Of a DNA stretch of 44,882 bases, positions 14,638-16,162 are shown piece after piece. Source of the stretch: a virus (taxonomy: Duplodnaviria; Heunggongvirae; Uroviricota; Caudoviricetes); the IMG/VR virus record IMGVR_UViG_2872678658_000005, positions 1-44,882 of that record; one strand, given 5' to 3'. Position numbers and translations under genes: made by a program. Each line of letters starts with the position of its first letter. Position 1 is the first letter of the stretch. The notes under the pieces are model-generated. The model saw nothing but the letters and a program-made list of their open reading frames with translations. It did no database searches and had not been told where the DNA came from.

Positions 14638-14755
14638 CTGTAAACTTGGTGCAGTACAGTAAACACGCTGGTGGTCGTGAATACTGACTTTTTATCTTGC
14701 TGGCTTTTTAGACAAGAGTTATTGGTATGTCATGTTAATCAGAAGGGAAAAAGAC

Positions 14756-14959
14756 ATGCTAAAACAGCAAGATATGACAGAAACCGCCGCCGCAGTCCTT
14801 CATTTCTTACCTGCTGACAAGTGGGTAACGCCACGCATGATGACGAGAACTACCGGAGTAAGCGAAGCCCAGTGCCAGTTAATACTGACTCAGTTAGTTC
14901 TGGCGGGTCTGGCGAAGGATAACGGCGGGTACGGGAATAAATTCAGACGCTGCCAGTAA
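14756..14959 (+). CDS. small putative winged-helix DNA-binding protein (67 aa)
   Basis: Internal ATG with AAGGGA RBS 7 nt upstream; helix-rich TPRMMTRTTGVSEAQCQLILTQLVLAGLA; sits directly upstream of the methyltransferase. Confidence 0.4.
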   Translation: MLKQQDMTETAAAVLHFLPADKWVTPRMMTRTTGVSEAQCQLILTQLVLAGLAKDNGGYGNKFRRCQ

Positions 14960-15109
14960 TGGCGGTTTCCTGCTGTGAAAATGGGCGGCTGGTGGGTGTT
15001 GGTAGCACCTGCCAGCCATTCGCTCATGCTTACTGGTCACAAGCGAACCACGGCCCACTGCTTTAGCGCAAAAGCAGAGTGAGCCTACCAGAGTTACGCT
15101 TACTGATCC

Positions 15110-16162
15110 ATGAAAAATACTGTAAGAATAAACAGTGTTGATTTAATCAACGCTGATTGCCTGCATTTTATTCAGTCCCTGCCTGATGATTCCATTGACC
15201 TGATTGTTACCGATCCGCCGTACTTCAAGGTGAAACCCAACGGCTGGGACAATCAGTGGAAAGGGGACGAAGATTACCTTAAGTGGCTGGACCACTGTCT
15301 GGCCCAGTTCTGGCGGGTGTTAAAACCTGCCGGAAGCCTTTACCTGTTCTGTGGGCATCGTCTGGCATCTGATATTGAGGTCATGATGCGTGAACGTTTC
15401 AACGTGCTTAACCATATCATCTGGGCGAAGCCGTCCGGACGTTGGAATGGGTGTAATAAAGAAAGTCTGCGCGCATATTTTCCTGCCACAGAGCGCGTTC
15501 TGTTTGCTGAACATTACCAGGGGCCATATCGCGGCAAAAGTGACGGCTATGCGGCAAAAGAAAGGGAACTCAAACAGCACATAATGGCACCGCTGATATC
15601 GTATTTCAGGGATGCTCGTGCCGAACTGGGTATAACGGCAAAACAAATTGCCGAAGCCACAGGTAAGAAAAATATGGTTTCCCACTGGTTTGGTGCCAGT
15701 CAGTGGCAGTTGCCGAATGAGGCTGACTATCGGAAGTTACAGGCACTGTTTTCCCGTATAGCGGCAGAGAAGTTTCAGGAACAACAACTGGAACAACCAC
15801 ACCACCAGCTGGTGGCATCTTATGATTCACTGAATCGCAAATATTCTGAATTGCTGGATGAGTTTAAATCTCTCCGGCGCTATTTCTCCGTATCAGTCTC
15901 CGTGCCTTATACCGATGTCTGGATGCATAAACCCGTTCAGTTCTACCCGGGTAAACATCCGTGTGAGAAACCGGCGGATATGCTCAGGCAAATAATCAAT
16001 GCCAGTAGTCGACCTGGTGATCTGGTTGCTGATTTTTTTATGGGATCCGGTTCCACAATAAAAGCAGCAATGGCGCTGGGGCGTCGGGCCTTAGGTGTTG
16101 AGCTTGAGTCAGAGCGGTTTAACCAGACAGTGAAAGAGATAAACGAGCTGGTGGGGAAATAA
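15110..16162 (+). CDS. DNA methyltransferase, beta-class N6/N4 (350 aa)
   Basis: Motif IV DPPY (IVTDPPYF) N-terminal and motif I FxGxG (DFFMGSGST) C-terminal; no adjacent restriction endonuclease. Confidence 0.8.

Follow-up and report, generated by a model that had tools for sequence, protein, structure and literature searches.

A probable late-operon anti-restriction cassette in a lambdoid prophage, built around an M.EcoGII-type adenine methyltransferase and a conserved leader RNA

The window analysed here, 44,882 nucleotides in full, is a lambdoid prophage of Escherichia coli UTI89. Between its antiterminator and lysis genes lies a compact cassette whose region occurs in 1591 of 5426 complete E. 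coli genomes (~29%). The cassette and the features that bear on it are as follows.

10395..11048, plus strand: second methyltransferase, phage Dam type (PF05869, E 9.7e-46; PADLOC MTase_II)
13574..13954, plus strand: antiterminator Q (PF06530, E 4e-51), the presumed activator of read-through into the cassette
14551..14578, plus strand: candidate late promoter, pR'-like (TTTACA, 16-nt spacer, TATGCT; consensus scan)
14613..14640, plus strand: intrinsic terminator, tR'-like, about 40 nt past the promoter (terminator scan)
14756..14959, plus strand: 67-aa protein with a predicted winged-helix fold (WP_000917723.1; phrog_331, function unknown), called from the ORF, RefSeq and homologues
14970..15109, plus strand: conserved structured leader RNA of ~140 nt (alignments, pair counts, covariance model)
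15110..16162, plus strand: beta-class N6-adenine methyltransferase of the M.EcoGII family (WP_000799705.1, 350 aa), assigned from PF01555, motifs and identity to M.EcoGII
16169..16195, plus strand: terminator-like hairpin GGCCACGTCAGGTGGCC followed by a T-run, between the methyltransferase and holin genes (terminator scan)
16233..16445, plus strand: P21-type holin, the first lysis gene (PF04971, E 1.9e-35; essD in RefSeq)

The neighbours of the methyltransferase gene are a DUF968 gene, Q, a reverse-strand lipoprotein-like gene, and the holin, lysozyme and Rz genes. It lies directly 3' of the late promoter and terminator and directly 5' of the lysis genes. The preliminary description of this DNA had assigned the gene to the late region, which holds insofar as it follows the late promoter; it is, however, the first or second gene past the promoter and terminator and not part of the late-region body. 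This arrangement, in which Q is followed by promoter/terminator, small ORF, leader and methyltransferase and these in turn by a holin gene or tRNA-stx, is found again in Ayreon, 1720a-02, SfV, Hafnia yong2, phiP27, Providencia, Morganella, phiNP and Stx2a_1447, and a holin gene also stands just 3' of the methyltransferase in N15, Serratia OS31, Vibrio VHML and Aeromonas phiARM81ld. The window holds no tRNA genes after the late promoter of the kind found in Stx phages.

The 150 nt between the small ORF and the methyltransferase gene, taken as empty in the preliminary description, contain a conserved structured RNA. Its first fold, S2, comprises helices P1 (14982-86/15053-57), P2 (14987-98/15006-17) and P3 (15020-28/15038-46), which form a three-way junction with a highly conserved junction sequence, and two hairpins, P4 (15058-64/15071-77) and P5 (15078-84/15098-15104). 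A predicted alternative fold, S1, combines helix A (14981-86/15022-27) with a long-range helix L (15035-45/15097-15108). Fold S1 would pair ~12 bases just before the AUG, and fold S2 would leave the start region free. The methyltransferase ATG lacks a Shine-Dalgarno sequence, consistently so among relatives. In the window, the energies of the two folds differ little (-56.5 vs -55.4 kcal/mol); this also holds on average, although single leaders show differences of up to about 11 kcal/mol.

When run on the raw MAFFT alignment, RNAalifold recovered a consensus of only 17 pairs, a poor result caused by misplaced indels; the helices were consequently defined by hand and tested by pair counts. On the unbiased MAFFT alignment, 83-87% of helix cells are paired, compared with 28-49% when the partners are slid. 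In a broader alignment, which was fitted to the model structure and whose pair counts are inflated by that fitting, 80-100% of cells are paired in P1-P2-P3 and P4, and 35 of 38 pairs have changes on both sides; its covariation score is 0.415, whereas shuffles score 0.148 and slid partners no more than 0.09. In P2, substitutions in the variable strand are limited to exchanges between C and U or between A and G, which preserve G-U or Watson-Crick pairing and identify the plus-strand RNA as the molecule that folds. Helix L is 87% paired with four covarying pairs in enterobacteria and 58-79% paired on the broad set, and helix A is 88-97% paired with mostly one-sided wobble changes; the alternative fold S1 is less well supported outside enterobacteria. 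Rfam 15 yielded no match to 14960-15110 at the gathering score or at E up to 10, and six distant copies of the leader, searched at E up to 0.5, likewise had no match over its coordinates. An ORF that opens within the leader at ATG 14981 (33 codons in the window) was rejected as a coding gene because in relatives single-nucleotide indels in the P2 loop cut it short (in locus L009, for example, a TAG follows after 7 codons).

The leader RNA is the element most tightly linked to the methyltransferase. An 18-base pattern from its core matched about 55 enterobacterial genomes, and the distance from the pattern to the methyltransferase ATG is 129-135 nt wherever the gene is intact and sufficient downstream DNA is available. 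In distant phages, a covariance model places the leader directly 5' of the first ORF of the module (E 7e-15 to 1e-5); the leader precedes M.EcoGII-type methyltransferases in lambdoid, N15-like, Vibrio and Aeromonas phages. A mixed methyltransferase alignment run against viral contigs had returned near-identical loci only and was useless for diversity; it was replaced by searches seeded with VHML and N15. With a second-iteration model, about 15 of 86 diverse methyltransferase loci showed other upstream elements and no leader, which is therefore not obligatory for the methyltransferase family. A second type of leader is seen in L189-L210. Some relatives, Aeromonas phiARM81ld and several IMG/VR phages among them, carry a Com-like zinc-ribbon ORF (PF10122) between leader and methyltransferase; the instance in locus L093 scores 27.9 bits (cut-off 22.9), and CxxC...CxxC ORFs occur at L180-L194 and L222. 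In every case the model match runs up to the start codon of whichever ORF follows, the methyltransferase or the Com-like gene.

These features suggest that the leader probably gates translation of the methyltransferase, an enzyme type that is toxic when expressed. A function outside translation is unlikely, be it as a processed small RNA, as an element for RNase processing or stability, or as a DNA-level recombination boundary. Mosaic joints do fall near the element (the SfV methyltransferase is 98% identical to that of the window and the SfV small ORF 49%), terminated late-promoter RNAs such as StxS can be sRNAs, and terminator-like hairpins bracket the element in some phages. Against such functions stand the fixed spacing to the next start codon, a match that ends at whichever start codon follows, and the consistent lack of a Shine-Dalgarno sequence there; covariation that tolerates G-U pairs indicates RNA and not duplex DNA.

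The gene behind the leader had been described as encoding a 350-aa beta-class methyltransferase, and the profile search agrees: PF01555 (N6_N4_Mtase) matches residues 29-341 with E 3.7e-42 and 145.2 bits (cut-off 26.7), and M.RsrI, MboIIA and CcrM, beta-class enzymes with solved structures, match at E 1e-21 to 1e-15. The catalytic DPPY (motif IV) lies at residue 35 (nt 15212) and the AdoMet-binding FMGSG (FxGxG, motif I) at residue 310 (nt 16037), and this order, with the recognition domain between them, places the enzyme in the beta class. Both motifs are intact, and the inactivating substitutions raised as a possibility in the preliminary description are not seen. The same gene is present in mEp460, cdtI, SfV, Ayreon and Stx2 phages.

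The closest characterized relative, M.EcoGII from E. coli O104:H4 C227-11, methylates adenines irrespective of their context (Murray et al. 2018, PMC5778455). Aligned end to end with an M.EcoGII sequence that was machine-read from the supplement of PMC11551740 and may hold a few errors, the window enzyme is 80% identical (279/349) and 90% similar, with two 1-residue gaps. The comparison spans the M.EcoGII recognition domain (about residues 160-237), and the one fifth of residues that differ lie mostly in this central domain. Identity rises to 89% with the reconstructed ancestor Anc291, which is active on DNA and RNA and has no motif; the window enzyme belongs to an MKNTV... subgroup nearer to Anc291 than to M.EcoGII. 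M.PflMI, the nearest site-specific relative, is only 27% identical to M.EcoGII. The likeness to M.EcoGII and M.EcoGI extends to length (350 vs 349 aa) and to the layout of N-terminal DPPY, central recognition domain and C-terminal FxGxG, and both M.EcoGII and the window enzyme reside on lambdoid prophages. Judged by its sequence, the enzyme is thus of the M.EcoGII type, a known kind and not an unknown orphan, and we infer that it methylates adenine N6 without sequence specificity, although 20% of its residues differ from those of M.EcoGII. From 80% identity to an any-context enzyme, no target motif is expected, contrary to the preliminary description, which had anticipated one. Reading the lack of a new methylation motif as evidence against the gene would wrongly reject an active enzyme, because methylation in any context is expected.

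M.EcoGII and its reconstructed ancestors also methylate single-stranded DNA, RNA and RNA:DNA hybrids, which raises the question of whether RNA or single-stranded nucleic acid, such as late host or phage transcripts, is the main substrate in vivo. We consider this very unlikely. DNA is the better substrate in vitro, where as much as 99% of dA but only about 30% of rA is methylated, and a gene located immediately 5' of the lysis and packaging genes suits an enzyme acting on DNA destined for packaging. The preliminary description had proposed anti-restriction self-protection, which is also the function proposed in the literature for the M.EcoGII family (PMC5778455).

As described earlier, no restriction endonuclease lies nearby: Pfam and PADLOC found no partner in either flank, the identities of the neighbouring genes agree, and PADLOC reported methyltransferase models only in the neighbourhood of the gene. 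The DUF968 protein (12576-13571) was considered as a nuclease partner, its HNH-like match being marginal (26.9 vs 26.6 bits). DUF968 genes are common in lambdoid nin regions and occur without an M.EcoGII-type methyltransferase. Because of this, and because the gene also stands 5' of Q in the Ayreon, 1720a-02 and Providencia modules, we do not treat it as a partner.

The small ORF upstream of the leader has a maximal frame of 14732..14959 (75 aa); the start at 14756 (MLKQQDMTETA...), preceded by AAGGGA 10 nt 5', is kept in all homologues and in the RefSeq call. Homologues with 45-67% identity occur in Salmonella, Klebsiella, Hafnia, Providencia, Morganella and Plesiomonas modules, and N15 gp51 is a distant one. 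An AF2 model (pLDDT 76.6) has the order H1-b-H2-H3-wing, and Foldseek searches with it returned winged-helix domains only, with TM 0.74-0.81 to Zalpha, TrmBL2, the RNA-binding winged helix of SelB and IclR. The conserved start agrees with the 67-aa length, and the modelled structure with the winged-helix fold, given for this ORF in the preliminary description. A Zalpha-like function was considered and is not claimed (identity 11-18%; contact residues not found by eye). Searches of Pfam and NCBIfam, including Xre-type HTH models, gave no match. The protein has two Cys and no match to PF10122, the Cys4 zinc ribbon, and its gene ends 150 nt before the methyltransferase. It is missing from about 11 of about 55 otherwise intact genomic modules; because of this absence, its role in the cassette may be accessory or unrelated.

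An orphan site-specific methyltransferase with its own motif, timed by the small protein as a C-protein-like transcriptional controller, would fit the beta-class architecture with its central recognition domain and the small DNA-binding-type fold encoded immediately 5', and some databases label homologues of the small ORF as TrmB-family regulators. The C proteins of restriction-modification systems are dimers of the Xre HTH type and act through C-boxes to time the expression of the nuclease. The window, by contrast, has a winged helix, no nuclease and no promoter between the two genes: the promoter scan found none in the spacer, where an extended -10-like string, TGTGAAAAT, was discarded since its register is not conserved. 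Together with the dispensability of the small ORF and the high identity to non-specific enzymes, both M.EcoGII and the ancestor, this leaves little room for such a system, and the controller role suggested in the preliminary description fails.

The candidate late promoter, whose position is presumptive, matches the consensus at only 9 of 12 positions. In an alignment, its -10-like element followed by GTTAAGAGTGGTTACTTCGCC is common to the window, 1720a-02, phiP27 and Stx2a_1447. The sequence AACCCGCCGC..GCGGG with T7 of the terminator is kept in nine of nine aligned phages, and the SfV and Ayreon records annotate its equivalent as a terminator, as they do the counterpart of the hairpin 3' of the methyltransferase gene. 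Promoter and terminator would define a short terminated RNA of about 14585-14640. The position of the methyltransferase gene fits Q-dependent expression only in lytic growth, and it is from this position that we infer Q-dependence. M.EcoGII is prophage-borne, silent in the lysogen and toxic when expressed; for M.EcoGI, M.EcoGII and other STEC homologues, no methylation is detectable in lysogens and expression is deleterious. A conserved terminator, a start codon lacking a Shine-Dalgarno sequence and a leader predicted to sequester it would be consistent with this silence and toxicity. That the methyltransferase is active in the lysogen and, jointly with the Dam-like enzyme that the preliminary description correctly placed at 10395-11048, regulates host or prophage genes epigenetically is hardly credible against that evidence, even though prophage methyltransferases such as M.EcoGIII can reprogramme host expression and the region is widespread in E. 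coli.

The arrangement has a parallel in phage Mu. In the Mu com-mom operon, a toxic DNA-modifying enzyme is silent in the lysogen, and the zinc-finger protein Com binds the mRNA leader to activate its translation. The parallel between Mu mom and M.EcoGII has been drawn in PMC12707154. On the reading proposed here, both systems combine a promiscuous, toxic late DNA-modification enzyme with a small ORF directly 5' and a structured leader that would occlude the start codon, and the Com-like ORFs of relatives echo the translational control of Mom. The window differs in that its upstream protein is predicted to be a winged helix without a Cys4 zinc ribbon, there is no overlap between its small ORF and the methyltransferase start, and some modules do without the ORF. 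Furthermore, Mom produces N6-carbamoylmethyl-adenine and not m6A, and protein binding to the window leader is a candidate mechanism only. Phage 1720a-02, named in PMC5778455 as carrying an enzyme very similar to M.EcoGII, has the same arrangement of small ORF, leader and methyltransferase as the window. The accounts of M.EcoGII consulted describe neither an upstream ORF nor a leader RNA, and a limited literature search found no leader or late-operon regulation described for an M.EcoGII-type enzyme; the enzyme itself is known, but the regulatory cassette of leader and surroundings appears undescribed.

We propose, with a probability of about 0.75, that the locus is a late-operon anti-restriction cassette built around a non-specific M.EcoGII-type methyltransferase with translational control at the level of the leader. 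The analysis itself establishes the family membership and intact motifs of the enzyme, the gene order, the modelled winged-helix fold of the small protein, and that the RNA is conserved and covaries. In the lysogen, transcripts from a constitutive late promoter would end at the 14613-14640 terminator, keeping the methyltransferase off, and such silencing would matter because the characterized family member is toxic when expressed. Upon induction, Q would carry RNA polymerase past the terminator, and the polymerase would go on to transcribe, in this order, the winged-helix ORF, the leader, the methyltransferase gene and the lysis genes. Heavy m6A modification of the replicated phage DNA would follow shortly before packaging, and such DNA should be less open to attack by many adenine-sensitive restriction systems of the next host. 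Translation would be a second level of control: an AUG without a Shine-Dalgarno sequence stands behind the two-fold leader, which may set or gate the amount of methyltransferase made.

More tentatively, the leader could be a bistable riboregulator of a new class, in which binding of a partner to the junction would free the AUG from the sequestering helix. It resembles riboswitches and other bistable leaders, such as three-way-junction aptamers coupled to a helix that sequesters the start site, in its conserved junction, its covarying helices and its two predicted folds, which would exclude each other and of which S1 would pair the bases before the AUG; it differs in matching no Rfam family, and the proposed switch is read from sequence. 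The winged-helix protein, the methyltransferase itself (autogenous feedback) and a small molecule such as SAM or SAH are candidate partners, and folding kinetics behind Q-modified polymerase are a further candidate trigger for the shift between folds.

For chromatin and RNA footprinting, M.EcoGII is a standard reagent, and it is the textbook case of a phage enzyme that evades restriction by modifying a single base wherever it occurs. How so toxic an enzyme is silenced and then dosed by phages was left open in the original paper (PMC5778455). A cassette of fixed layout that opens the late operon and carries a strongly covarying leader offers a testable answer to this question, and the leader is a new candidate RNA family. 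Control by the cassette would also explain why methylome surveys of lysogens report no motif for so common a gene, which could now be annotated as 'M.EcoGII-like non-specific adenine methyltransferase' instead of 'DNA-methyltransferase'. If the bistable model is correct, the leader would complement Q antitermination with a post-transcriptional safeguard for a toxic, genome-wide methyltransferase, a switch that would span lambdoid, N15-like, Vibrio and Aeromonas temperate phages.

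The methyltransferase cassette lies within a lambdoid prophage of the E. coli UTI89 chromosome, which is 100% identical to 1.7 kb around it. The same region occurs at a coverage of at least 80% in 1062 complete E. coli genomes (1591 of 5426 at any coverage), as well as in phages mEp460, cdtI, SfV and Ayreon and many Stx2 phages. The gene order is as follows.

10395-11048, phage Dam gene (PF05869, E 9.7e-46)
12576-13571, + strand, DUF968 gene
13574-13954, + strand, antiterminator Q (PF06530)
14039-14485, - strand, lipoprotein-like gene
14551-14578, + strand, promoter-like site
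14613-14640, + strand, intrinsic terminator
14756-14959, + strand, small ORF (67 aa)
between small ORF and methyltransferase, + strand, gap of 150 nt (the leader)
15110-16162, + strand, methyltransferase (350 aa; PF01555)
16169-16195, + strand, terminator-like hairpin between methyltransferase and holin
after that hairpin, + strand, P21-type holin, lysozyme and Rz

The preliminary description had recognized an orphan beta-class enzyme with DPPY and FxGxG motifs and a second, Dam-like enzyme, and both readings hold. The protein matches PF01555 (E 3.7e-42) and has its DPPY and FMGSG motifs at residues 35 and 310, the gene at 10395-11048 encodes phage Dam, and Pfam and PADLOC scans of the methyltransferase neighbours detected no restriction nuclease. 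What had been missed is the non-specific family to which the enzyme belongs. Matches to solved structures are to generic beta-class enzymes only. M.EcoGII, a 349-aa beta-class non-specific adenine methyltransferase from a prophage of E. coli O104:H4, represents 'a very large family ... in different strains of E. coli'; it is silent in the lysogen and its expression is harmful (PMC5778455). Using the M.EcoGII sequence from the supplement of PMC11551740, BLASTP found 279 of 349 residues identical to the window protein (80%; 90% positives, two single-residue gaps). Identity is 89% to Anc291, a reconstructed ancestor of M.EcoGII-type enzymes that, when expressed, methylates DNA 2.4-fold better than M.EcoGII and shows no sequence motif on RNA, and the nearest site-specific enzyme, M.PflMI, shares only 27% identity with M.EcoGII. 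By sequence, these values place the window protein deep within a clade whose tested members are all non-specific. It is almost certainly a member of the M.EcoGII family and, judged by that family, is likely to be non-specific itself. REBASE-based annotation of STEC genomes labels homologues of 92-94% similarity 'nonspecific' and finds no methylation by them in lysogens. Because the family is non-specific, an active enzyme is expected to yield no motif, so the lack of a new motif does not serve as the refutation that had been proposed. The enzyme as such is already known.

The position of the cassette suggests when it is expressed. Sequence upstream of the small ORF can be aligned in nine phages, and the terminator (AACCCGCCGC..GCGGG, then a T-run) is present in all nine; in several, a -10-like element and then GTTAAGAGTGGTTAC lie about 40 nt 5′ of the terminator. 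SfV and Ayreon annotations place terminators at the same site and again 3′ of the methyltransferase. The lambdoid late promoter is constitutive, with lysogen transcripts ending at the terminator and Q-modified polymerase reading through after induction (PMC7547250). The promoter and terminator geometry in the window is this standard late arrangement, which makes the cassette module the first genes of the late transcript and suggests that the methyltransferase is Q-dependent. The module precedes the lysis genes in the window and tRNA and stx genes in Stx phages, and the methyltransferase is directly 5′ of holin in N15, Serratia OS31, Vibrio VHML and Aeromonas phiARM81ld (48-64% protein identity). 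The hairpin at 16169-16195 (+) is strong, so the cassette is flanked by terminators on both sides, like an inserted module needing antitermination at both ends.

Several neighbouring elements were also observed. The late promoter and terminator would give a terminated RNA of ~55 nt (~14585-14640, +), analogous by position to StxS of Stx phages; its region is conserved in 1720a-02, phiP27 and Stx2a_1447, and two loci (L095, L211) have weak, sub-threshold isrK and P9 matches at the equivalent place. The small-ORF 5′ UTR (14641-14755, +) is conserved across genera, with a hairpin (CTTGCTGG..GACAAG) and then an invariant AGAGTTA in the alignment of upstream sequence (A4). Reversed between Q and the late promoter, with its own promoter-like site (14504-14475), is a 148-aa ORF (14039-14485, -) with a lipoprotein-type signal (..LSATIISGC), assigned to phrog_3152 and without matches in Pfam, NCBIfam or PADLOC; it looks like a moron, and late transcription does not run across it if the promoter is that at 14551. 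The sole tRNA of the window, tRNA-Thr (CGU; 1369-1444, +), probably marks the integration site at one prophage end. Just 5′ of the prophage Rha-family gene, isrK (8077-8153, 67 bits) and C4 antisense RNA (8178-8265, 83.6 bits), both on the + strand at Rfam gathering level, together have the look of a c4-ant region of the P1/P7 type, controlling immunity or an anti-repressor (8077-8265).

The small ORF was reported as winged-helix, and modelling agrees. Its start at 14756 is kept in all homologues and is the RefSeq call; an upstream ATG at 14732 lacks conservation. Neither Pfam nor NCBIfam matches it, and it falls in phrog_331, a group of unknown function. Homologues that are 45-67% identical to it occur alongside the methyltransferase in Salmonella, Klebsiella, Kosakonia, Hafnia, Providencia, Morganella, Mangrovibacter and Plesiomonas, with a near-invariant N-terminus (MLKQQDMTETA) and helix (RCQLILTQLxxAGL). 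AlphaFold2 (29 sequences; mean pLDDT 76.6) predicts a textbook winged helix of H1, strand, H2, H3 and beta-hairpin wing, and the top Foldseek matches are all winged-helix (Zalpha, TrmBL2, IclR, MarR and the SelB mRNA-binding domain; TM-scores 0.67-0.81, E 5e-3 to 5e-2). The predicted fold is compatible with DNA or RNA binding and alone does not discriminate between them. A restriction-modification controller, as had been suggested, is rejected: the protein lacks an Xre-type HTH, and there is neither a nuclease nor an intervening promoter. The ORF is not obligatory, being missing from about 11 of about 55 genomic modules, where the leader lies directly 3′ of the terminator or another hairpin (for example, L024 and L026). 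N15 gp51, encoded two genes 5′ of the N15 enzyme, is probably a distant homologue by profile comparison (hhalign 74%, E 2.8e-5), which argues for some functional tie. Mosaicism is evident here: the SfV leader equals that of the window and its methyltransferase is 97.7% identical, against only 49% identity for the small ORF, some database proteins (P0051-P0056) are chimeras of two small-ORF types, and recombination breakpoints cluster at the small-ORF end.

The spacer between small ORF and methyltransferase, 138-153 nt in ten phages, is conserved far more than the small ORF. An 18-base core pattern, AATGGGCGGCTGGNNNGTGTT, was scanned against a single genome of each species and gave 80 loci, about 55 of them in Enterobacterales, Morganellaceae or Plesiomonas; in every intact case with enough downstream DNA, the methyltransferase starts 129-135 nt 3′ of the core. 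The other matches, in scattered taxa without the methyltransferase, are close in number to the ~17 expected by chance. Truncated leader remnants without a downstream methyltransferase in Morganella and Enterobacteriaceae genomes (L061, L076) look like decayed copies in degraded prophages. Single-sequence folding of the leaders gave two recurrent folds. S2 is a three-way junction of P1 (UGGGC/GCCCA), a long hairpin P2 and a hairpin P3, followed by hairpins P4 and P5, with the final bases 5′ of the AUG unpaired. In S1, AUGGGC pairs with the P3 5′ strand (helix A), and the P3 3′ strand pairs with bases just 5′ of the AUG (helix L). In a MAFFT alignment of 57 distinct enterobacterial leaders, fitted to no structure, 86.6% of S1 cells and 83.5% of S2 cells were paired, against 28-49% with partners slid by 1-3 columns. 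Double-sided changes affect four pairs of helix L, four of P3 (up to 17 sequences) and three of P5. The P2 5′ strand is near-invariant and its 3′ strand varies C/U and A/G only, keeping G-C, G-U or A-U pairs, a pattern explicable only as RNA read from the + strand. Under constrained folding, S1 lies on average 2.7 kcal/mol below S2 across the 57 leaders (-56.5 versus -55.4 kcal/mol in the window). The gap is thus very probably a real structured RNA. Rfam 15 gave no match to the window leader at E up to 10 and none for six distant copies searched at E up to 0.5, and full-text literature searches turned up no account of the element.

The enterobacterial alignment and the S2 structure were used to build a covariance model, which matched directly 5′ of the methyltransferase in Serratia OS31 (6.6e-15), N15 (1.5e-10), Vibrio VHML (1.7e-9) and E. 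coli PhiR46_1 (3.3e-8), and in Aeromonas phiARM81ld 5′ of a small ORF preceding it (E 1.1e-5). Once 160 further loci had been added, with VHML and N15 methyltransferases as seeds, the model matched 70 of 86 non-redundant loci at E < 0.01, in every case on the coding strand and ending at a start codon; about 15 of the 86 lack the leader, also by a second-iteration model. In the broad alignment, 81.3% of cells pair (31-40% slid), 35 of 38 pairs changed on both sides and the covariation score is 0.415 (0.148 shuffled, at most 0.09 slid); these counts lean to S2 because the alignment was fitted to the model, and the structure-free MAFFT counts agree in direction. Even so, helix A remains 88% paired, with helix L down to 58-79%. 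The Aeromonas copy shows a concerted change of the 5′ strand (CGUGGC) and its two alternative partners (both GCCACG). N15 gene 52 (L092) is annotated from 1735, but protein alignment and leader model both put its start at ~1501, so the deposited gene is probably missing its N-terminal part with the DPPY region.

These features bear on how the enzyme is expressed. At a usable distance, no clade has a Shine-Dalgarno sequence before the methyltransferase AUG, the leader-to-AUG distance is fixed, and the supported fold S1 pairs bases just 5′ of the AUG. Relatives L093 (1362-1577), L180-L194 (about 440-570) and L222 (483-647) carry a Com-like zinc-ribbon ORF between leader and methyltransferase, with CxxC...CxxC motifs (L093, PF10122, 27.9 bits against a cut-off of 22.9); it sits exactly at the expected methyltransferase start, and the methyltransferase overlaps its end. 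In phage Mu, Com activates translation of mom, a toxic late DNA-modification gene, and these loci resemble a com-mom arrangement grafted onto an M.EcoGII-family enzyme. A parallel between Mom and M.EcoGII has been drawn (PMC12707154). Together, these four features point to translational control by the leader, a reading that we favour by a small margin. The fold might be shifted by the methyltransferase itself, whose characterised relatives bind and methylate RNA, by SAM or SAH, or by folding kinetics behind Q-modified polymerase. The winged-helix protein is a further candidate; SelB provides a precedent for winged-helix domains binding RNA hairpins. Directly 5′ of the AUG, UGAUCC (15104-15109, +) is complementary to GGAUCA of the 16S rRNA 3′ tail, just 5′ of the anti-Shine-Dalgarno core, and a GATC Dam site falls within it at 15105; among enterobacterial copies, AUCY-AUG is partly conserved.

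A sub-clade of the same methyltransferase family (IMG/VR loci L189-L210), usually with a different ~65-aa ORF upstream, has a second, unrelated conserved leader, ..GCCTTGAGTACCTGAGACCC..GGAGAGGAAGCA..hairpin..TTCAAGGCTCT..GGAG..ATG, about 130 nt 5′ of the methyltransferase start, which looks like a separate candidate RNA motif. It thus seems that enzymes of this family repeatedly require post-transcriptional control and obtain it by more than one route. The anti-restriction role first proposed holds as an interpretation, and we give a probability of roughly 0.75 to the composite explanation of a late anti-restriction cassette with an M.EcoGII-type enzyme and a translational leader. A cassette that combines a late position gated by a terminator with an accessory winged-helix gene and with a leader that covaries, is widely conserved and seems to be bistable appears to be undescribed, and this reading of the cassette is directly testable.
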